From the sequence record PZ674596.1: DNA of 64,000 nt; one strand, 5' to 3'. This DNA comes from a phage. Of this stretch, positions 1,805 through 15,005 are shown piece after piece. Position numbers and translations under genes: made by a program. The notes beneath the pieces are model-generated. The model worked only from the letters and a program-made list of their open reading frames with translations, searched no databases and was not told where the DNA came from. Positions within the stretch are counted from its first letter, which is position 1. Every line of letters begins with the position of its first letter.

Positions 1805-4800
1805 ATGAAGGCACTGATGGTTCGAACTGACTTCTCACTTGGGGAGTCGGCTCTAAAAGCAGAAAACGCGGTGAAGATTGCCAGAGAAGCTGGCTACACC
1901 GCTGTAATTTCAGCAGATAGCATGAATATTGCGAGCGTTATTCCACTACAACGTGCCGCTGGTGACGACATGGCGGTTATTTGTGGTGTGAAACTAAACA
2001 TTGTTGATGATCCCACATACGAGCACCGGGCTAAACTTGCTAAAGAATCTATGAGATGTATGGAATCATTAGAGCGAGGACGTAACTACTCGTTTACCGC
2101 TCTAATTAAAAATGAGAAAGGATATCGCGACATCTGCGAACTAATGACGGCGGCCAACACACGAGAACAGTTCTACTTTGTACCGCGTCTCTCGCTCGAA
2201 CAGTTGGTTTCTACATATGCCAAAGGCAACATCATCCTGCTTACTTCCGACATCGGTAGCGTGTTCCAACGCAACGATTTTGCAAAAATCATAAGCACAC
2301 TGATTACAGCGGGTGGAAAAGACAACTTCTATAGTGTGGTTTATCCGCACCCTACCCCATTCTACGACCAGATTAACGTCCGGGCGATGAAAGTCGCCAG
2401 CGCATTGAAAATAGAGCCAGTGGCGTTCTATCCCGCTTATTACGAATCGATCGACGATGCAGACATTAAAGACATTGCGCACATGGTTACGAACAACATC
2501 AAAATCGACCAGCCGCATCGTCTGCGTATCCCCCACCAGCGAGATAACGCCGTCAATGGTCGCCGCCATCTCCTTGAGGCGCTTAAAGCCTTCTCCGTTC
2601 GCATGGATGTGCCGGTAACAGCTGCAATGGCCTCAACAACGCAGGATACCATTATCGATGCCTGCACATGGCGCTGGCATGAATTGCCGCCAGCACTGCC
2701 AAAGATGGCAGACGACGAGCCTGCAACGCTGATGAAACTGGCTGTTGCAGGGCTGCGTAAACGTCTTACCACAAAAGAGTTTGGATACACACCACCTGCT
2801 TCTGAGAACAGGGTTTATGTTGAGCGGCTAAAGTACGAAATGGACACGCTGACTCGCCTGGGATTCTGTGGTTACTTCCTGATGGTACGCGATCTGATGA
2901 ATCACAGCCGTGAAACTGGCATTCCTGTCGGGCCTGGTCGTGGTTCCTCCGCTGGATCTCTGGTGGCATGGTGCATAGGCATAACCAACGTCGACCCAAT
3001 CCGTCACGGTCTTCTGTTTGAGCGTTTCATCAACCCTGAGCGTCTCGACTTGCCAGATGCGGATTTGGACTTCAGCCAGGCACGTCGCCATGAGGTGATC
3101 GAGTATCTGAATGAACGATACGGCGAAGATTACGTTGCAGGTATTCCTAACTTCACATATCTGGGCGCAGCCTCTGCACTACGTGACACCGCTCGTATTT
3201 ATGGTGTGGAGTCCGCAGATATGGCGGTATCAAAAGAGCTGAGGAACGTCGAGGATGATAGCCTTCCATTGGAAGAGCTGCGCGAACAACTGGCAAGTCT
3301 CGACAAATACGCGACAAAATACCCTGATGCATTCAATGCAGCCTGCAAGTTACAAAGCCTTATGCGTGGCTTTGGTAGACATGCGGCAGGGATGATTGTA
3401 GCAGGTGTTCCTCTGACAGAACGTACACCGGTTGAACGACGTGGTGACGCGCGTTGTATCGCATTTGACAAGCGTTACTGCGAGGCTATGGGCCTAATTA
3501 AGCTGGACGTGCTTGGCCTGGCAACTCTCGATTTGCTCGATAGTGCAAAACGCTACATAAAAGAGAACACAGGTGAAGATATCAATCTTGATGCCATTTC
3601 TCTTGAAGATCGCAAGGTGCTGGATGGTTTTGCTGCTGGGTACACTCAAGGTGTTTTCCAGCTTGAATCAGGCCCAATGCGCAAGCTGCTTAAAGATTTA
3701 GGTGGTGGAATTGAGCCAATGAGCTTTAAAACGGTCGTTGCTACGACTGCGCTCTTCCGGCCGGGGCCAATTCAGTCAGGCATGTTGGATGATTATGTTT
3801 CTGTCGCCAAAGGCTTTATGACGCCGGAATCATTACACCCCGTTCTTGATGAACTTACCGCAGAAACAAATGGCGTGATTCTTTATCAGGAACAGACGAT
3901 GAACGCGACTCGATTGCTTGCTGGCTTCACAATGGCTGAAGCTGACGGCGTTCGTAAAGCGATCGGCAAAAAAGACATGGAGAAAATGAAGAGCATGGGT
4001 GAGAAGTTCATCGTTCAGGCTCAAGCTGGCTGGATAGACGTTGAGCTGGAAGATGGCACTACACAGCGCATTCACCGTGCGGAACATTTTAAATGCGAAG
4101 ACGGAACACTGAAAACTGTCGAAGAGGCACTTGAGTACGGCGCAAAACTACCTATAAACGCAGTACGCGTTACAGCGTCACATCCAGGGCTATCAGAGAT
4201 GAAAGCGAAGGAGATCTGGACCGCATTCGAAAAGAATGGTGCCTACCAGTTCAACAAATCACACTCTGTTGCTTACTCCTTAATCAGTTATCAATCTATG
4301 TGGTTGAAAACTCATTATCCCGCAGAGTTTTTCGCTGCTGCTCTCACTATTCTTGGCGAAGATAAACACCAGGGGCTGGTTAAAGATGCGCTGACCTATG
4401 GTATTCGCGTATTGCCACCAGACGTTAACGTGTCATCTAACCGAATCGAGATCCGCACGCTTGAAGATGGCAGCCAGGTGCTGTATGCGCCCTTCTCTGC
4501 TGTGAAAGGGTGTTCTGAGAATGGCTGCCAAGCCATCATGAGAGCGCGAGAAAAAGTTGGCGGCAAATTCGAGTCACTGGCGCAATTCGAAGAAGCTGTC
4601 GAGAAACGTGCCTGTAATAGTCGAGTGCGCGAATCACTGCAAAAAGTAGGTGCGTTTGCATCCATCGAGCCAGGTAGTCTGCCAGCAACTGATCCAGAGC
4701 GTCTCCGCGACCAGGCTGAATTGATGGGAAACCTTGTCATAGACGCAGTTAAAGCCTCACGTCCGTTTGAGATGAACCCCAAACGTTCGGCTGAAATTAA

Positions 4801-5323
4801 CGCACTCATGACACGGATGGCGGCTGAAATGGGCTTAGGTGATGAACTAATCCGCCCCAGCATTGGTATTAAGCCGAAAATCATGATCATTCTGGACAAT
4901 GCGAACGGCAATGATGCTCGAACCGGTTACTTCATGGAGAACGGATACGACGACTTTAAGGCCAAGCTATTGACGGCTGGAGATTTACGCATGGGCGATC
5001 TCTATGTCACAGGCGTTTGCAAGAAGGTTAAAGACAAAGAAAAAGACTACACCAAAGACGAGATCGGCCAGTTCACCGACTTTATACGTGAAGAGATCAA
5101 TCTGGTGCGTCCGACCTATGTGCTGACGTGTGGCAGCCGGGCAACGGCATTGTTTAACAACAAAAACAAGCCATCCGATTTGGTCGGCAGGAAGGAGTAT
5201 CTTCCAGACCTTGACGTTACTGTCTTTTACGGGTTTAACCCCAACATTCTTTACTTCAGACCTGAAGAGGGAGAACGACTAGAAGCGATATTAGCCGACG
5301 TAGCAGAAACTATTAAGACGTGA
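1805..5323 (+). CDS. dnaE: DNA polymerase III alpha-subunit-like replicative polymerase (DnaE family) with divergent C-terminal ~170 aa
   Basis: 1172 aa; conserved DnaE core GYFLMVRDL...GPGRGSSAGSLVAWCIGIT..DPI..GLLFERFINPER; RBS AAAGGTAAAAACAC before ATG. Confidence 0.9.
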   Translation: MKALMVRTDFSLGESALKAENAVKIAREAGYTAVISADSMNIASVIPLQRAAGDDMAVICGVKLNIVDDPTYEHRAKLAKESMRCMESLERGRNYSFTALIKNEKGYRDICELMTAANTREQFYFVPRLSLEQLVSTYAKGNIILLTSDIGSVFQRNDFAKIISTLITAGGKDNFYSVVYPHPTPFYDQINVRAMKVASALKIEPVAFYPAYYESIDDADIKDIAHMVTNNIKIDQPHRLRIPHQRDNAVNGRRHLLEALKAFSVRMDVPVTAAMASTTQDTIIDACTWRWHELPPALPKMADDEPATLMKLAVAGLRKRLTTKEFGYTPPASENRVYVERLKYEMDTLTRLGFCGYFLMVRDLMNHSRETGIPVGPGRGSSAGSLVAWCIGITNVDPIRHGLLFERFINPERLDLPDADLDFSQARRHEVIEYLNERYGEDYVAGIPNFTYLGAASALRDTARIYGVESADMAVSKELRNVEDDSLPLEELREQLASLDKYATKYPDAFNAACKLQSLMRGFGRHAAGMIVAGVPLTERTPVERRGDARCIAFDKRYCEAMGLIKLDVLGLATLDLLDSAKRYIKENTGEDINLDAISLEDRKVLDGFAAGYTQGVFQLESGPMRKLLKDLGGGIEPMSFKTVVATTALFRPGPIQSGMLDDYVSVAKGFMTPESLHPVLDELTAETNGVILYQEQTMNATRLLAGFTMAEADGVRKAIGKKDMEKMKSMGEKFIVQAQAGWIDVELEDGTTQRIHRAEHFKCEDGTLKTVEEALEYGAKLPINAVRVTASHPGLSEMKAKEIWTAFEKNGAYQFNKSHSVAYSLISYQSMWLKTHYPAEFFAAALTILGEDKHQGLVKDALTYGIRVLPPDVNVSSNRIEIRTLEDGSQVLYAPFSAVKGCSENGCQAIMRAREKVGGKFESLAQFEEAVEKRACNSRVRESLQKVGAFASIEPGSLPATDPERLRDQAELMGNLVIDAVKASRPFEMNPKRSAEINALMTRMAAEMGLGDELIRPSIGIKPKIMIILDNANGNDARTGYFMENGYDDFKAKLLTAGDLRMGDLYVTGVCKKVKDKEKDYTKDEIGQFTDFIREEINLVRPTYVLTCGSRATALFNNKNKPSDLVGRKEYLPDLDVTVFYGFNPNILYFRPEEGERLEAILADVAETIKT

Positions 5324-5448
5324 TCCCATAAACATGGCCTCTATGGCCATGTTTTCCCTTATCCCCTCATATCCCCTATCCTCGAACTCCTTGCCTTATC
5401 ATCACAATGATATAATCAATATAAGATGATAAGTAAAAAGGAAAGCAC

Positions 5449-5880
5449 ATGATCACCGATATTTACGAGAAAATAATGTCTGATCTCGAGTTTGACCGAG
5501 ACAATCTGGAGGAAGTCTGGCGTAGACAACCCCGCCTTTTAATGGAGTATGGCTCAAAACTCGCTCATGCAGAAAGAAGTGTCGCAGAGGCAAAACTTAA
5601 CCTTGAAGCTGTTGAAGCAAAGCTATACGACACAGAGCGTAAGAACTTGAGTATGAACGGCATTAAGTTCAACGAATCTGTACTGGACGCTAAGGTTAAA
5701 ACAAACCCACAGTATCTGTCTAAACGGCAGAAGTTGGATGAAGCACGGCACATCGCAGACATATACAAACATGCTGTCGCCGCCTTTTCGCATCGCCGAG
5801 ACATGATCGTTCAGGCGTCAAAGATGGCCATCGTTGAATTAGAGCGATTAGGCTCTGAACGCTTTATTACTCCCCGTTGA
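5449..5880 (+). CDS. hypothetical protein (possible UvsY-like recombination mediator)
   Basis: 143 aa helical/charged protein; start context AAAAGGAAAGCACATG; lies between polymerase and SSB/RecA-like genes; homology not verifiable here. Confidence 0.45.
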   Translation: MITDIYEKIMSDLEFDRDNLEEVWRRQPRLLMEYGSKLAHAERSVAEAKLNLEAVEAKLYDTERKNLSMNGIKFNESVLDAKVKTNPQYLSKRQKLDEARHIADIYKHAVAAFSHRRDMIVQASKMAIVELERLGSERFITPR

Positions 5881-5997
5881 TTTTTGATAGATAATAAGTA
5901 AGTACTGATCTATCATTTAACAGCTCGAAAGAGCCACGAATGAACGAAAGCCCAACGCGCATAGCGCCATCGGCCAAATCACAACAAGGAGAAACAC

Positions 5998-7026
5998 ATG
6001 TCTAAGACATTACTTGATTTGCTTAACAAAACTCGTGAAGACATTGCCGCCAAACGTGGTAACAACGTTGATCTGACTCGCTTAAAAGACGGCGTCAACT
6101 ATATTCGCATCTTCCCGAATAAAGACGACCCAAACGGTAAGTTCTTCCAGACTTTCGGTATGCACTACGTTAAGTATCAGAACGAGGAAGGTAAAGAAGC
6201 AACCAACGCTTATATTTGTGAGCAACATACTCACGGTCGCGCTTGTCAGCTATGCGAAATGGTGATGGAAGGTCGCGCTCGTCACAAGGGTAACAAAGCA
6301 ATGGAAGAACGCATCGGTCAAATGCGTGCCACTCCTCGCTACCTGGTCAACGGCATTCTTTCTGCTCGTGAGGATTTCGCAGATGCTGAGAAATGCCAGT
6401 TAATCGAGCTGCCGTCTACTGTATTCGATGATATCTGCAAAGCAATCACCGAAGACATCGCTGATGATATCGGCAATCCACTGAGCAAAGAGGAAGGCTA
6501 CGCATTCCTGATTAAACGTACTGGCTCTGGTCGCGATACCAAATATGACGTCTCGCCTAAGCGTAAAGTCTACAAAGGCGATATCGAAGATAAATTCTGG
6601 AATACCCAGCATGATCTGATCGCATACGCAAATCAGGCTGATGAAACTCGTCTTCTGTCGACAGTTCGCACTATGGGTCGTCTGATTGGCATCGCTGCAC
6701 CAACTGCCGCAGCATCTGCACCAGCAATTTCCTCAACCGCGAAAACATCGGCTGCGGCACTACCTGGATTTGGCTCTGTCACTGGTCATACGGAGGGTGC
6801 GACTGCTGTAGCTACCGCTCATACCCCAGCTTCTGAACCAACCAGTCTGGTTGATGAAGAAATCCTCCGTGCCGTTGAAACTGAATTTAAACCAGAAGCA
6901 AGTCCCGCTGCCGTTGCAGTATCAGTCAAAGAGTCTGAAGCAGTCGCAGCGACATCTGTAGCAGCCGCATCTGCGACGGAAGATGAAGGTCTGGATGACC
7001 TACTGAGAGAGCTGGACTCTCTGTAA
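5998..7026 (+). CDS. ssDNA-binding protein, T4 gp32-like
   Basis: 342 aa; His/Cys zinc-site-like cluster CEQHTHGRACQLC; Ala/Ser/Thr-rich linker; acidic C-terminal tail DEGLDDLLRELDSL. Confidence 0.65.
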   Translation: MSKTLLDLLNKTREDIAAKRGNNVDLTRLKDGVNYIRIFPNKDDPNGKFFQTFGMHYVKYQNEEGKEATNAYICEQHTHGRACQLCEMVMEGRARHKGNKAMEERIGQMRATPRYLVNGILSAREDFADAEKCQLIELPSTVFDDICKAITEDIADDIGNPLSKEEGYAFLIKRTGSGRDTKYDVSPKRKVYKGDIEDKFWNTQHDLIAYANQADETRLLSTVRTMGRLIGIAAPTAAASAPAISSTAKTSAAALPGFGSVTGHTEGATAVATAHTPASEPTSLVDEEILRAVETEFKPEASPAAVAVSVKESEAVAATSVAAASATEDEGLDDLLRELDSL

Positions 7027-7043
7027 TCCCATTACGTGACCAG

Positions 7044-7072
7044 TAAGGCGTCTACGGACGCCTTACTTTTTG
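7044..7072 (+). terminator. Rho-independent terminator after SSB gene
   Basis: Hairpin TAAGGCGTC-tac-GGACGCCTTA followed by CTTTTT. Confidence 0.6.
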
Positions 7073-7086
7073 GAAGGAATGTACCG

Positions 7087-8031
7087 GTGAATTATCTCTT
7101 CGTAGATGGCAATAGCCTGGGTTATTACCACCAACAATCTGACAAATTGCACAACGGCGAAATGGAAGTACAGGCTGCTTTCGGCTTTGTTAAGAACGTC
7201 CGTCGTTATGCCTCCATCCTCCATGCCCGACCTATGATTCTTTGGGATGGATTTAGTGACAAGCGCCGCGACTTTTACCCGGACTACAAAGCAAATCGCG
7301 ACGACGATCCTGATATGAAAAAGATGAAGGAAGGCTTTGCTATCCAGAAGCCATACATCCTCAAAATGATGACCGCGCTTGGAGTTACCCAACTCATTGC
7401 AAAAGATGCAGAAGCGGATGATCTGGCCGGGCTGCTGGTAGCCAGCATTGCACCGCAGCCAATCGTTGAACACATCTATCTGTTAACAGGCGATAGCGAC
7501 TGGCTTCAGTTAGTTCGCGAAAACGTAAGCTGGGTAAGCCTGCGCGAAGACGCCAAAAACAAGCAGGTTAATTTTGAGCAATTTGCGGAACTGACAGGAT
7601 TCGCTACTCCTCGCGCATTTTTGGAAGCAAAAGCATTACAAGGCGATAACTCGGACAACATTAGCGGTGTTGGTGGCATTGGTGCTGGCGGTGCGAAAGA
7701 GCTGCTGCATGAATGGGGAAGTGTCGCAACGATGGTACGCGGCATCAACGACGGCTCAATCGTGGTTGACAAAGGACGCCATAAGACCGCCTTCAACAAA
7801 CTAGCGAAGAATGCCTTCAACGAGAAAACAGGCTGTCGAATGCTCGAAGCGTTCAAGAGAAACATCACGCTAATGAACCTGATTGAGACGAAGTTTCCGC
7901 CTACCGAAATCGAAACAATCAAAGGCAATCGTGACGTGAAAGCATTCGAGCAACTGTGCTACGAGCTGAATTTCCGTTCGTTCCTTGAAGACCTTGAAGT
8001 GTTTGTTCTTCCATTCGAAAGGTATTGCTAA
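7087..8031 (+). CDS. 5'-3' exonuclease / flap endonuclease (T4 RNase H / T5 D15-like)
   Basis: FVDGNSLGYY N-terminal nuclease motif and H3TH motif GDNSDNISGVGGIGAGGAKELL; start placed at in-frame GTG 7087 after GGAAGGA, because table start 7036 lies inside the upstream terminator hairpin. Confidence 0.8.
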   Translation: MNYLFVDGNSLGYYHQQSDKLHNGEMEVQAAFGFVKNVRRYASILHARPMILWDGFSDKRRDFYPDYKANRDDDPDMKKMKEGFAIQKPYILKMMTALGVTQLIAKDAEADDLAGLLVASIAPQPIVEHIYLLTGDSDWLQLVRENVSWVSLREDAKNKQVNFEQFAELTGFATPRAFLEAKALQGDNSDNISGVGGIGAGGAKELLHEWGSVATMVRGINDGSIVVDKGRHKTAFNKLAKNAFNEKTGCRMLEAFKRNITLMNLIETKFPPTEIETIKGNRDVKAFEQLCYELNFRSFLEDLEVFVLPFERYC

Positions 8032-8297
8032 TGCTTAAATCGATTATCAATGGCGCTACAACCACCCCTGCCCAACTGGCAAAAGAAATTGTCTTTTATC
8101 ACGGTGAGTACGCTGTCATCGCACTGCCGTCAATTCTAGGCGCTGCCGGAATGAAAGCGACAGATCGCGAGTTTGGATTAGTCAGCGAGCAGGTCGTAAA
8201 AATCCTCGCTCGTGTATCCAGACTCCTTAACCACGATGCGATTGTATTCGACGAATCCGCCGCTTTAAAACGAATCAACGAAACAAAAGGAGCCTGA
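8031..8297 (+). CDS. hypothetical protein
   Basis: 88 aa from ATG overlapping upstream stop (TAATG); table ORF starts 6 nt earlier at TTG. Confidence 0.4.
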   Translation: MLKSIINGATTTPAQLAKEIVFYHGEYAVIALPSILGAAGMKATDREFGLVSEQVVKILARVSRLLNHDAIVFDESAALKRINETKGA

Positions 8298-8299
8298 TC

Positions 8300-9373
8300 A
8301 TGGCAAAAGGAAAATCCGCACTGGCACTTGCTCTGAAAAAGAAAATCGGTAGCAACGACGAAATTCAGAAAGTAACTCATTGGATTGATACAGGCTTTCC
8401 ACCGTTAAACAAAGCTATTTCTGGTCGTTACGATGGCGGCTTCCCATGTGGTCGTATCGTCGAAGTATTCGGTCCTCCAAGTGCAGGGAAAACGTTCCTT
8501 GCAACAGCAGCGATGATCTCCGCTCAAAAACAAGATGGTCTGGCGGTATTCCTCGATCATGAAAACAGTTTTGACGTTGGCCTGGCTGTAGCCAATGGCC
8601 TGAACGCAGATGAGGATGACGGTCAGTGGGTATACAAGCAGCCTGATACCTTCGAAGACTCTGTAGAGTTGATCGGCACAATTCTTAAATTGGTACGTGA
8701 TGAAGAGCTTATTCCTGAATCAGCACCTATCTGTATCGTGGCTGACTCACTTGCGTCTATGGTTCCGAACTCCAAAGCCGAGAAGTTCGAAAAGATGGCT
8801 GAAGGCACTGCCAAAGACAAAGATCAGCTAAACATGAACGACAATACGGCACTGGCTCGTGCGACAAGTGCGAACTTCCCTACTCTGGCTTTGTGGGCAC
8901 GCAAATACAACGCCTGCATCATCTTCTTGAATCAGGTTCGCACAAAAATCGGTGTAATGTTTGGCGACCCTACTACGTCGCCAGGTGGAGATTCACCGAA
9001 GTTCTACGCTTCTGTACGTATCCGTCTTGGTGCATCGGTGATGAAGGATGGTAAAGAGAAGATCGGCCAGGACGTAGGCGCAGAATGCATCAAAAACAAA
9101 GTTGCACCACCGTATGGCAAATGCACCTGGAAATTCTACTTCGATCCTACTCGTGGCCTCGACGTTATCGAATCGCTCGTCGAGTACATGCTGGAAGAAG
9201 GATACCTGCCAAAGAACGCCAGCGGGCGAGTTGAAATTGGTGACAAGAAATACACCAAATCGCAGATCGTCGAGATGTATCGGGAGAAGCCACTGGCTGA
9301 AATCATTGCGGCTTTGCAGGCAATCGACGACCGAAGAGCAAAAGACAACCCCACCGAGTCAGTAGAAGAGTAA
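8300..9373 (+). CDS. RecA-family recombinase (UvsX/RecA-like)
   Basis: 357 aa; RecA-type Walker A VEVFGPPSAGKTFLA; RBS AAAGGAG. Confidence 0.75.
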   Translation: MAKGKSALALALKKKIGSNDEIQKVTHWIDTGFPPLNKAISGRYDGGFPCGRIVEVFGPPSAGKTFLATAAMISAQKQDGLAVFLDHENSFDVGLAVANGLNADEDDGQWVYKQPDTFEDSVELIGTILKLVRDEELIPESAPICIVADSLASMVPNSKAEKFEKMAEGTAKDKDQLNMNDNTALARATSANFPTLALWARKYNACIIFLNQVRTKIGVMFGDPTTSPGGDSPKFYASVRIRLGASVMKDGKEKIGQDVGAECIKNKVAPPYGKCTWKFYFDPTRGLDVIESLVEYMLEEGYLPKNASGRVEIGDKKYTKSQIVEMYREKPLAEIIAALQAIDDRRAKDNPTESVEE

Positions 9374-12158: not shown

Positions 12159-12691
12159 ACCGCTGACAGCATACACAATCAACTACCGCTGATAGCATAT
12201 CGAGAGTCTATCTCACCGCTCACAGCATACTTTACTCGATTTTTTACCGCTGACAGCATACTTAAGAAATTGCATGAATAATGTGTCCCGGTATGGGTAT
12301 AACCAGAACAAAATTACCGCTGGCAGCATACGAATGTCTGACATATACCATTAATTACCGCTGATAGCATATCCAAACAAAAATTCCTCAATAAAACACC
12401 GCTGACAGCATACGTTCTATCAGGGAGTAGCAGGCAATAAATGCCTTTCACTACAAGCAATCAGCGCAATAGCAATAGAATGTTAGTGAGCGCAAACCTA
12501 TATGGAATGCACTCTTCGAGGTTAGTAACCACTGGGGAGGTATGACAGAGCATTGAGTGGTGATAGATGATTTACCGCTCACAGCATACGTTCATCTCAC
12601 TATACCGCTGGTAGCATATCTTTAACCGTTCACAGCATACTTTTCAGAAAAATAGCCGCTGATAGCATACATTTCACCGCTGACAGCATAT
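12159..12691. repeat. iteron array: 12 direct copies of 16-bp ACCGCTGACAGCATAC (incA-like, downstream of repA)
   Basis: Copies start near 12159, 12185, 12215, 12246, 12316, 12357, 12398, 12574, 12604, 12625, 12655, 12676; all in one orientation, 1-2 mismatches each. Confidence 0.85.
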
Positions 12692-13785
12692 CAAAGCAGT
12701 TTGAGACTATTGGAAAGGATCTCAATCATCTTGATATTTTCAGGCGTCAAATTCTGCGAAAGTTCGGTTATCTTGTTGATAATGTTCTGTTTGGCATCAA
12801 TTTCCCCAGCTTTCTCATCTGGTTTTTTGGGTTCGATGTCTTCAGGTTTTGGCGGTGCGACTTTGAGTTTTGGATTGCGGCTGTGAATCTGGATATAGAT
12901 CGACCGCCCACGCTTAATCTCGCTGTATTCGAGATAGCCCAAATCTTGGAGAGCTTTTAAGCCGTTACGTATAGTCTGATTCTGCGAGCTGACATTCCTG
13001 CTACTCAAATTGAGTCGCGCACGCAATCGAGCAAGCGATACCGGCGCAGGCTTGGTTGGAAGACTTTCGATGAAGGTGTACAGAGCCTGTGCTGTTTCTT
13101 TGCGTGGTAGCTTATTGATAACCTTTAACTGCAAAAGAACCTTATGGTCAAAGCGATATAGTTCGGCCAGCTTCGGTTCTGCATAGAACACCACCGTATC
13201 TTTCTGCTCGTTGTAGTCCACGCTATTGATGAGGTGCACCATCAGAAGCGAGATCTTGTTAGAGCCGTCGACGTTCTTTTCTTCATACGTTCTCTGGAAA
13301 GACAGAGTTGTACGCATGATCTTCAAAAGACTGTTTGTAAGCCGGTCGCGGAGTGTTTTGCGGATCTGTGACGATGGATAGCCACAAAACTTAGCAAATT
13401 TCGTGATGCTTAACTCGACACGACCGTTAGGTTCGCCGTATTCTGCCAGCGAACGCACAACGCCCACCCACGTTTTGAAATCATGATCCATGTCGAGACG
13501 AGGACCGGTTATCTTGATATCGGAATAGCCTTCAGAACGGGCTACTTCGAGCTGGACAAGCTCCTTTGAAGCATCGATCTCATTTGGCTTGTTACGTTTA
13601 CTGTATTTTGTTCCCTTAAGCGTGGGGACGAACAACCCCAGTCGCATCAACGCAATTGGTTGGACTGTATTGTTGCTATTAGGGACAAGTTCCCCTGTGT
13701 ACAATTCAAGGGAACCTTCTTCAAAGTTGTCGATGTTATCTTCTACTTCTTTGTTATTTTTACCTTTTTTATTTTTTGTGGACAT
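12691..13785 (-). CDS. repA: plasmid replication initiator RepA (P1 RepA / RepFIB-like)
   Basis: 364 aa from ATG 13785 (the table's N-terminal 40 aa is read-through of the iteron region); motifs SNNTVQPIALMRLG, DIKITGPRLDMD, LYTFIESLP, HSRNPKLK match my recollection of P1 RepA; flanked by iterons on both sides. Confidence 0.8.
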   Translation of the reverse strand: MSTKNKKGKNNKEVEDNIDNFEEGSLELYTGELVPNSNNTVQPIALMRLGLFVPTLKGTKYSKRNKPNEIDASKELVQLEVARSEGYSDIKITGPRLDMDHDFKTWVGVVRSLAEYGEPNGRVELSITKFAKFCGYPSSQIRKTLRDRLTNSLLKIMRTTLSFQRTYEEKNVDGSNKISLLMVHLINSVDYNEQKDTVVFYAEPKLAELYRFDHKVLLQLKVINKLPRKETAQALYTFIESLPTKPAPVSLARLRARLNLSSRNVSSQNQTIRNGLKALQDLGYLEYSEIKRGRSIYIQIHSRNPKLKVAPPKPEDIEPKKPDEKAGEIDAKQNIINKITELSQNLTPENIKMIEILSNSLKLL

Positions 13786-13805
13786 GTGGACACCTTTGTC
13801 ATTCA

Positions 13806-13907
13806 ACCGCTGACAGCATACTTGATTTGCCGCTGACAGAATACCAAAAACAGTTGGCAGCATACGGTGAACCGCTGACAGACTATCAATTACCGCTGAC
13901 AGCATAC
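13806..13907. repeat. upstream iterons (4 full + 1 half copy), incC/origin-like
   Basis: Same 16-bp iteron near 13806, 13829, 13871, 13892 plus half-site GGCAGCATAC near 13856. Confidence 0.75.
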
Positions 13908-13947
13908 ATGAACATGACTTCAGACCAGTCGTGGCGCGGGTTACAGC

Positions 13948-14020
13948 GATCGGGGATCTTATTTGATCTATATAAGGATCTATCTATGGATCTCTTTATT
14001 AGGATCTATCCTGTGGATAT
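13948..14020. promoter_or_regulatory. origin-like region: six GATC sites in ~60 bp plus DnaA-box-like TGTGGATAT
   Basis: GATC at about 13948, 13955, 13965, 13977, 13989, 14003; CCTGTGGATAT at 14010-14020; next to the iterons. Confidence 0.55.
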
Positions 14021-14106
14021 GTGAATAATTAAAACAGGCATTTACTACCTTCGGCGCACCTGGTGGGTTATCGTTGCCTCGGCTAACAATCACAGAAAAA
14101 TGACAT

Positions 14107-14751
14107 ATGGATCTAAAACGCACGCGCTGGGTTCGTCGTCTTGAAGACGGCTCCTACACTATCGAATCAAATTCCAACCTGAATAAGCAGAAGTTGCTTT
14201 GTGACATCTGCGGTATAGCGGCGAAGTGCCCGATCTACGAAACCAGAATTAAACTTGATAAGGCTGGTGTGAATTTTCATTTAAACAGTTGCATCAGGTA
14301 CGTTCCATTACTCGCATTTCGTAAACCGATCATCGGATTGGATGCCCCCTACTTCAACACACTCCGTTCAGGTGTGACGTGGCGAGATCGTTTATCACCA
14401 GACAAGCTGATTTGCCTCGTATCCGCAGACACAGGGAAAATCATCCGTTTTGGGAAAGTAGACAAGGTTTACTCAGGCCCAGTAGACGAAATGTTGCGGA
14501 AACACAGCCGGTTTAATCATCTCTGTATGGGTGGTGAGAAAATCGAGAAGGTAGAAGAAGTGATCCGCAAATCCTACGGACACTTTCTGACCAAAGATAG
14601 CCTGCTCACCGCAATCTACATCAGACATGTAAAACGTGAGTTCGACCTCGAATACCACAGCGAAGAAGAGCTTAACCTTGTTGACCCACGTCCAAAAGCT
14701 GGCGTCATAAGCATAAACGCAGCGCGTAAAAAGCCCACTGACGCGCTGTAA
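14107..14751 (+). CDS. hypothetical protein
   Basis: 214 aa; first gene after replicon; no recognised motif. Confidence 0.45.
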   Translation: MDLKRTRWVRRLEDGSYTIESNSNLNKQKLLCDICGIAAKCPIYETRIKLDKAGVNFHLNSCIRYVPLLAFRKPIIGLDAPYFNTLRSGVTWRDRLSPDKLICLVSADTGKIIRFGKVDKVYSGPVDEMLRKHSRFNHLCMGGEKIEKVEEVIRKSYGHFLTKDSLLTAIYIRHVKREFDLEYHSEEELNLVDPRPKAGVISINAARKKPTDAL

Positions 14752-15005
14752 CCCTCCAGATCGTATATTGGCGTAGATAGAATCTACGCCTCCTCAAAAT
14801 AGCTCTCATAGCGTTCTACAGTGATCCTGTCTTATTTTTAGTCATACAGACAAGCAAAGTTGCGCCACAATAAATAGGTATATACTTACTTATAAATTTT
14901 GTATATTAAGGCGCTCGTTTCATTCATAACATACCGTTATGCATAGTTGTTTACCTTCTCATTGCTCTTAAAATTTGTATCAAAATAACCACAAAGGAAA
15001 AACAC

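Follow-up and report, generated by a model that had tools for sequence, protein, structure and literature searches.

A catalytically degenerate family-4 uracil-DNA glycosylase domain at the C-terminus of the DnaE-type DNA polymerase of SSU5-like phage-plasmids

The C-family (DnaE-type) DNA polymerase encoded by a 64,000-nucleotide stretch of phage DNA (sequence record PZ674596.1; hereafter, the window) carries at its C-terminus a domain which, we conclude with great confidence, descends from a family-4 uracil-DNA glycosylase (UDG) and is catalytically dead. Positions 4805-5323, to which the domain had been assigned from the sequence alone, correspond to residues 1001-1172 of the polymerase (hereafter, the window DnaE) plus the stop codon. 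The dnaE gene of the window is 98-99% identical in DNA sequence to that of many ~110-kb Escherichia coli plasmids and of Escherichia phage CMS-2020a, 97% identical to that of phage PhiR41_1, and 85% identical to that of Salmonella phage SSU5; because of these identities, the window can be assigned to an SSU5-like phage-plasmid. Such elements, which include pHCM2 of Salmonella Typhi, pMT1 of Yersinia pestis, and hundreds of E. coli and Klebsiella plasmids, are frequent among clinical Enterobacteriaceae and bring with them their own polymerase III (Pol III)-type replicase. This raises the question of how a DnaE works without an OB fold, a tau-binding domain, or clamp genes of its own, and the answer would show another viral replisome rebuilt from the parts of repair enzymes, beside those served by poxvirus D4 and by the polymerases of SPO1 and T5.

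The relationship to family-4 UDGs is seen at the level of both sequence and structure, to a degree well beyond coincidence. The single sequence matches the family-4 model TIGR00758 (UDG_fam4) with E=1.1e-8 at 35 bits, below the curated cut-off of 125.3, and the Pfam UDG model PF03167 with E=8.5e-4 at 19.8 bits, below the curated cut-off of 24.3; the best four PDB sequence matches of the domain are family-4 UDGs in every case. When 1.8 billion cluster representatives were searched exhaustively, 143 relatives of the domain were recovered at E<=0.001, and it is on this search that our picture of the family is based; other homologue searches gave little besides fragments and some stand-alone UDGs. 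Forty-two full-length relatives, one per 50%-identity cluster, were used for the profile and for the residue counts given below. Against PDB sequences, this profile recovers the UDG of Sulfolobus tokodaii (4zbx, E=2.4e-20), TM0511 of Thermotoga maritima (1l9g, E=1.7e-17), the UDG of Thermus thermophilus (1ui0, E=1e-14), and UdgX (E ~3e-12). An AlphaFold2 model of residues 1006-1172, built with the family alignment, reached a mean predicted local distance difference test score (pLDDT) of 94.3 and a predicted template modeling score (pTM) of 0.90. Family-4 UDGs have an alpha/beta/alpha arrangement with a central four-stranded parallel sheet, and the model superposes on the solved ones; its best Foldseek match in the PDB is S. 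tokodaii UDG (4zby; query TM-score [TMq] 0.85, root mean square deviation 2.2 A, E=1.6e-11), and places 1 to 36 of that search are taken exclusively by family-4 UDGs or UdgX. A sequence-only reading of this DNA had likened the last ~170 residues to a family-4 UDG; structure prediction, for which an OB fold or the lack of any UDG-like fold was the alternative outcome, returned a confident family-4 UDG fold instead. A second model, covering residues 786-1172 (pLDDT 90.3, pTM 0.80), resembles the Pol III alpha structures 2hpi, 4iqj, and 3e0d in its first half and UDG4 structures in its second. Because ~185-193 columns of this longer model align to UDGs, the UDG-like fold probably starts near residue 990 (nucleotide ~4772), and the pTM of 0.80 leads us to predict that the domain is packed in a fixed way against the preceding helix-hairpin-helix domain, (HhH)2.

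Relative to the solved family-4 UDGs (1ui0, 1l9g/1vk2, and 4zbx), the window domain has the same fold (TMq 0.76-0.85) and shares a core of Y-x-T, K, LG, and P elements, but other residues stand in for motifs A and B, for the uracil-reading Asn and the stacking Phe, and for all four Fe-S cysteines. Family-4 UDGs are defined by GE(A/G)PG in motif A and HPS(S/A)(L/V)(L/V)R in motif B (PMC10359453). We mapped the pocket through a HMMER alignment onto the numbering of T. thermophilus UDGa (Tth UDGa), with the pocket residues as given by Xia et al. 2017 (PMC5387724). In motif A, E41, G42, P43, and G44 correspond to D1031, N1032, A1033, and N1034 of the window DnaE, and the nearby E47 to D1037; the stacking F54 is M1044, the uracil-reading N80 is G1070, and the motif B H155 is N1145. 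The same losses run through the family. Motif A of the relatives reads x-D-[ACG]-P-[NTS]; the position of the motif B His is filled by Asn in 24, Ser in 12, Thr in 5, and Ile in 1 of the 42 full-length relatives and by His in none of them, and the uracil-reading Asn is likewise absent from all 42. The stacking Phe survives in 3 of the 42. Acidity is what has been retained: the E41 position is Asp in 35 of the 42, and the E47 position is Asp or Glu in 39. In Tth UDGa, H155 stabilizes the leaving uracil, and H155S alone reduces k2/Km ~2500-fold, against ~40-fold for N80A and ~17-fold for F54A (PMC5387724). Judged from the alignment, all residues tied by published work to the binding or excision of uracil have thus been lost, two acidic ones excepted, and, read together with the mutagenesis of Tth UDGa, these substitutions indicate that the domain is almost certainly no longer a uracil glycosylase. 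This agrees with the loss of catalytic motifs that had been proposed from the sequence; of the two altered motifs named there, NPN (1145-1147) does occupy the HPS site, but DNANG was placed one residue off, motif A being LDNAN. Sensing of uracil ahead of the polymerase, as practiced by archaeal B-family polymerases, is also unlikely, because all uracil-contacting side chains except the two acidic ones have been replaced.

The four conserved cysteines of family-4 enzymes ligate a 4Fe-4S cluster. None of the four is present in the window protein, which belongs with 19 others to the 20 of 42 relatives that have no cysteine ligand at all. A CxxC pair and a third cysteine are kept in 17 of the 42, and a Cys at the position equivalent to C84 is found in 3, none of which keeps the remaining ligands. 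Because these 17 relatives keep three cysteines, yet have lost the catalytic residues, the decay of the metal site must have come after the loss of those residues.

Despite these losses, purifying selection acts on the domain no less strongly than on the polymerase core. Among the window, SSU5, and Klebsiella phage pJN2-26, its protein identity is 93-96% with synonymous sites near saturation, and the ratio of nonsynonymous to synonymous substitution rates (dN/dS) is 0.025-0.042, as compared to 0.01-0.07 in the polymerase core. On this ground, the domain is to be regarded as functional and not as junk. At the C-terminus of DnaE, full-length or split, it has been retained in no fewer than 143 clusters formed at 50% identity. 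Identity over the family as a whole is 25-30%; regardless of this, Y1067, E1097, P1103, and G1110 are invariant, and D1031, T1069, K1073, K1076, G1128, Y1132, D1137, and P1146 are conserved in at least 90% of its members. Several of the conserved residues are found in the loops of motifs A and B, in the strand that leads up to the lost Asn and the loop that follows, or in the Gly-Ser loop, elements which we take to form the DNA-binding face of UDG structures. The basic charge of genuine family-4 UDGs is not seen here: the window domain has an isoelectric point (pI) of ~5.1 and a net charge of -3, and the median pI over the 42 relatives is 6.1, whereas the pI of the genuine enzymes aligned with them as references is 8.4-10.

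The remainder of the window DnaE is that of a C-family polymerase, with the domain order PHP, Pol3 core, and (HhH)2 recovered by Pfam (Table 1). It scores above the cut-off of the DnaE/PolC superfamily model TIGR00594 (631.7 bits versus 434) and below every cut-off of the NCBIfam equivalog models for cellular DnaE. A single collinear BLASTP alignment at 30% identity joins residues 9-893 of E. coli K-12 DnaE to residues 4-956 of the window DnaE, so that the (HhH)2 domain is the last part collinear with cellular DnaE. Nothing in the window DnaE aligns by BLASTP to E. coli DnaE 894-1160, which comprises the beta-binding motif, the OB fold, and the tau-binding domain, and there is no OB domain among its Pfam matches. 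Since the collinearity stops at residue 956, the usual C-terminus, with the OB fold and tau-binding domain of cellular DnaE, is really missing, and the UDG-like domain stands in its place, as the sequence-only reading had held. In E. coli DnaE, the same place, directly behind (HhH)2 and the beta-binding motif, belongs to an OB fold and a tau-binding domain (~964-1160), whose folds are unrelated to that of the UDG-like domain and which have no sequence similarity to it.

Table 1. Features of the window DnaE, with their positions in the window and the residues they span
Feature	Residues	Position	Strand	Basis
dnaE, C-family (DnaE-type) DNA polymerase of an SSU5-like phage-plasmid	1-1172	1805..5323 (stop included)	+	open reading frame list, translation, Pfam
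PHP domain	6-176	1820..2332	+	Pfam PF02811, E=6e-13
Polymerase core (palm/thumb 309-571, fingers 574-740)	309-740	2729..4024	+	PF07733, E=1.7e-73; PF17657, E=2.6e-44
52-residue insertion relative to E. coli DnaE	750-801	4052..4207	+	BLASTP gap
(HhH)2 / beta-binding domain	866-955	4400..4669	+	PF14579 HHH_6, E=1.8e-16
Family-conserved motif RLRDQAELMGNLVI, core QAELM (970-974)	966-979	4700..4741	+	conservation, AlphaFold
C-terminal domain derived from family-4 UDG (modeled part)	1006-1172	4820..5320	+	AlphaFold, Foldseek, profile search
Degenerate motif A, LDNAN for GE(A/G)PG	1030-1034	4892..4906	+	alignment with genuine UDG4s, Tth numbering
Gly at the position of the uracil-recognizing Asn (Tth UDGa N80, 'TN' motif)	1070	5009..5011	+	alignment
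Degenerate motif B, NPNILYF for HPS(S/A)(L/V)(L/V)R	1145-1151	5237..5257	+	alignment

The linker that joins the (HhH)2 domain to the UDG-like domain (residues 961-1012) is 96-100% identical among the SSU5-likes and contains a motif, R-x-[KR]-D-Q-x-x-L-[LM]-P-G, that is kept in nearly all of the 42 full-length relatives. In the part of the 2014 survey by Timinskas et al. that deals with beta-clamp binding, the consensus is QL[SD]LF, with positions 1, 4, and 5 carrying the most weight, and the E. coli version is QADMF (PMC3919608). The core QAELM of the window DnaE resembles both of these; however, AlphaFold places it in a confident helix and not in a free peptide, which leaves its role ambiguous. 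QAELM is accordingly a candidate rather than a clear clamp-binding motif; the conserved segment RLRDQAELMGNLVI may be an internal beta-clamp-binding motif or an interdomain helix or connector.

As to what the domain does, a non-enzymatic accessory role in the replicase is likely. That it acts specifically by contacting DNA, as its conserved residues suggest, is more tentative, with slightly less than an even chance of being right, and we put the best overall explanation, in which a dead UDG-derived domain serves as a non-enzymatic, DNA-contacting accessory of the replicase in the place of the OB fold and tau-binding domain, at about even odds. Under this explanation, the former DNA-binding face of the UDG fold would still touch DNA, with no base being flipped or cut. 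The contacting face would be made up of the loops of motifs A and B together with the Y-x-T strand, a K-x-x-K loop, and the Gly-Ser loop, where most of the residues conserved across the family are located, and it might contact either the duplex behind the polymerase or the template strand. The domain would thereby hold DNA in the manner of the OB fold and aid processivity by helping the polymerase not to leave its template, in a replisome equipped with a DnaB-like helicase of its own but lacking tau. Several observations weigh against such a role. The domain is acidic to near neutral, in contrast to the basic genuine UDG4 references, which calls into question the usual assumption of a DNA-binding processivity factor; neither the intercalating Arg of motif B nor the Pro-rich loop that follows strand 2 is conserved; and the conserved Q-x-x-L-[LM] motif could supply binding to the host beta clamp. 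If QAELM does bind the host clamp, processivity would already be provided and no extra factor would be needed. A bolder version, in which the dead UDG domain is a built-in substitute for tau and the OB fold together, acting as a DNA-tracking or helicase-coupling module, appears rather unlikely. If it were true, phage and phage-plasmid genomes of ~110 kb would be replicated by a Pol III-type enzyme without a clamp loader and possibly without a clamp, and a minimal C-family replicase would be defined for a large and mostly uncultured group of phages.

The chief rival explanation holds that the domain is a site of protein docking, which stands in for the tau-binding domain by tethering the polymerase to a replisome partner (the DnaB-like helicase, the primase, the 3'-5' exonuclease, or the single-stranded DNA-binding protein) or to a host factor, with DNA binding lost or secondary. 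We consider this a serious but, on balance, improbable alternative. It would account for the acidic to neutral charge of the domain, so unlike that of the DNA-binding UDG4 enzymes, and it fits with the predicted rigid integration of the domain with the (HhH)2 domain. The region of E. coli DnaE that has been lost includes the tau-docking domain, as laid out in the domain descriptions of Timinskas et al. (PMC3919608), and the element carries a DnaB-like helicase, a 3'-5' exonuclease, a ligase, an RNase H, and a flap exonuclease of its own. There is also a precedent in the poxvirus UDG D4, which confers processivity on the polymerase inside a complex with A20 (cited in PMC3201878). However, no neighboring gene was found to covary with the domain, the genes downstream of dnaE differing between the SSU5-likes and Pseudomonas phage nickie. 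Moreover, the conserved residues are concentrated in just those elements that make the DNA face in UDGs.

It is far less probable that the domain is still an enzyme, with a glycosylase-type activity that acts on some base lesion through noncanonical residues and cleans the DNA beside the replicase. UDG families 2, 5, and 6 are active without the catalytic residues of families 1 and 4, and some polymerase-fused UDG4s, for example, those of the Thermus phage phiLo PolA and the Methanobacterium virus PhiF1 DnaE, look intact. Within the family, strong purifying selection, the two retained acidic pocket residues (D1031 and D/E1037), and the prevalence of Asn at the motif B His position would all be compatible with a residual activity. 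The window protein further has an Asn as the third residue of motif A, a position which we take to be the site of the catalytic Asn in MUG/TDG. The motif A of those enzymes is given as GINPG (PMC10359453). This third-position Asn is, however, not kept in the relatives, which have Ala, Cys, or Gly there, and the Asn that reads the base is missing along with the stacking Phe, the His of motif B, the Gly residues of motif A, and the Fe-S ligands, when single substitutions at these sites cost Tth UDGa 17- to 2500-fold (PMC5387724). Least probable of all is that the domain is an evolutionary relic, a folded cap that survives from an active polymerase-UDG fusion in an ancestor and serves stability only: gradual decay, with three of the four Fe-S cysteines in 17 of the 42 relatives and none in the SSU5 lineage, and the disappearance of catalytic residues across the clade would suit such a history, but not a dN/dS the same as that of the polymerase core, retention in so many full-length and split clusters, or several invariant residues in a family otherwise so divergent.

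This architecture has been described before. Timinskas, Balvociute, Timinskas, and Venclovas (Nucleic Acids Research, 2014; PMC3919608) reported, in their passages on the 'DnaEX' variant, an extra DnaE in some strains of Y. pestis and Salmonella enterica in which the OB fold and C-terminal domain are replaced by an archaeal-type UDG domain (PF03167). The window DnaE corresponds to this UDG-bearing variant, with the same architecture as given in those passages and the same gene on Yersinia and Salmonella plasmids, and the architecture itself is therefore already known from that account. The same passages call the domain a UDG and make no mention of catalytic loss, an origin in phage-plasmids, or a wide distribution. 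What is new here is the clade-wide catalytic loss under strong selection, the size of the family, and the existence of relatives with dnaE split around an open reading frame (ORF) of a mobile-element type; the increment over the 2014 description is modest. A literature search on phage or SSU5 Pol III with a UDG domain returned nothing relevant.

A domain of the same fold has been put to related uses in other systems. UdgX of Mycobacterium smegmatis, a covalent uracil-DNA binder, likewise has a family-4-like fold (TMq ~0.78 and E ~1e-10 to the window domain) and offers a precedent for the turning of a UDG fold from a turnover enzyme to a DNA binder; however, it has GEQPG, HPSSLLR, and a KRRIH loop with His109 (PMC10359453), none of which is present in the window domain. 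The A-family polymerases of phages SPO1, T5, PaBG, Serbin, and CP-51, among others, also combine a replicative polymerase with a partly degenerate UDG4-like domain. These domains lie at the N-terminus, and the four that were aligned retain the motif B His; the window DnaE, a family C enzyme, carries its domain at the C-terminus and without the His. The window domain is thus not of the SPO1/T5 type, and the likeness is functional or thematic; the match of PHROG 17 (DNA polymerase) to the window domain is weak (E=6e-7). When a genuine UDG4 was used as the query, 88 phage records were found, mostly under DNA polymerase genes, and a viral structure library also gave many polymerases. In the examples that were aligned, the motifs range from intact in the Thermus phage phiLo PolA (GEAPG, PFIG, TN, HPS) to altered in the Serbin PolA (GDAPN, HPA) and the SPO1-like CampHawk (QENPF, HPN). 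Degeneration has gone furthest in the C-terminal domain of DnaE (x-D-x-P-N, NP-x), which alone among the aligned polymerase-fused UDG4s lacks the His. A DnaE-superfamily protein of Methanobacterium virus PhiF1 (positions 3995-5338 of locus L011) is, like the window DnaE, a viral C-family polymerase with a UDG4, but here the UDG4 lies at the N-terminus and has apparently intact motifs (GLNPG, PFVG, ITN, HPS), in contrast to the C-terminal, degenerate domain of the window. Finally, poxvirus D4 is a family-1 UDG that is still catalytically active. It is a separate polypeptide that works with a B-family polymerase, whereas the window domain is family-4 derived and fused to a C-family enzyme; what they have in common is a UDG-fold protein in the service of a viral replicase, D4-A20 being the processivity factor of the E9 polymerase (cited in PMC3201878). 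By analogy with D4, Kazlauskas and Venclovas proposed that the UDG-like domains of the SPO1 and T5 polymerases are intrinsic processivity factors (PMC3201878).

About 30 cluster representatives of 379-431 residues start with MK..L.DGMSE...FNKSH and are the C-terminal halves of a split DnaE, in which the last part of the fingers is followed by the HhH and UDG-like domains. The break point of dnaE in these relatives is the site of the 52-residue insertion that separates the fingers from the beta-binding domain in the window DnaE, and the least conserved segment of the window protein is residues 746-815 (77-87% amino-acid identity). The gene upstream of the C-terminal half could be read in three contexts. 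In one (L013), an HNH/NUMOD homing endonuclease lies directly upstream; in the second (L015/L016), such an endonuclease is again upstream and is itself preceded by the end of the Pol III finger domain; and in the third (L014), an ORF with multiple helix-turn-helix segments is upstream of the C-terminal half, with the polymerase core before that ORF.

A megablast search with the window dnaE matched 745 plasmid records, among them 63 from Yersinia and 49 from Salmonella, which are pMT1/pHCM2-type relatives of the window. Sequenced phages with the C-terminal DnaE version are the SSU5-likes, the Pseudomonas nickie-like phages (~112 kb), and the Rhizobium RHEph10-like phages (~115 kb); a fecal-phage contig (MT836093) with a matching domain was not used, as its ORF pattern is unclear. 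In the window, dnaE is preceded by a gene for a CobS-like AAA ATPase and followed by genes for a flap 5'-3' exonuclease and then RecA. The order CobS, dnaE, exonuclease, RecA is the same in SSU5 and in a near-identical plasmid annotated by RefSeq, and phage nickie shares the order ligase, CobT, CobS, DnaE, exonuclease, RecA. No sliding clamp (dnaN) or clamp loader is annotated in the near-identical plasmid NZ_CP023851.1 (loci L003, L004, and L017), which encodes a DnaB-like helicase, a 3'-5' exonuclease, RNase HI, a ligase, and RepB, along with nrdAB, thymidylate synthase, and DHFR. In the same plasmid, nrdA is interrupted by an IS3 element, and metG and apbC genes of a host-like kind are present.

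The CobS-like ATPase gene (389-1624, + strand) adjoins dnaE, and in complete relatives a CobT-like gene comes before it; the pair (compare positions 5067-8468 of locus L006) is common to the SSU5-like phage-plasmids and Pseudomonas phage nickie. This AAA+/vWA-type CobS/CobT pair may have a role in replication. An ORF of 67 codons (1627-1830, + strand) overlaps the start of dnaE and ends 26 nucleotides inside it; its equivalent is annotated in SSU5 (SSU5_051), though not in the RefSeq plasmid or in PhiR41_1. RecA has 357 codons in both the window (8300-9373, + strand) and SSU5, as compared to ~780 codons in the 'RecA-like' coding sequence of PhiR41_1 (positions 12496-14835 of locus L001), which suggests that the latter contains an insertion, either an intein or a fused element.

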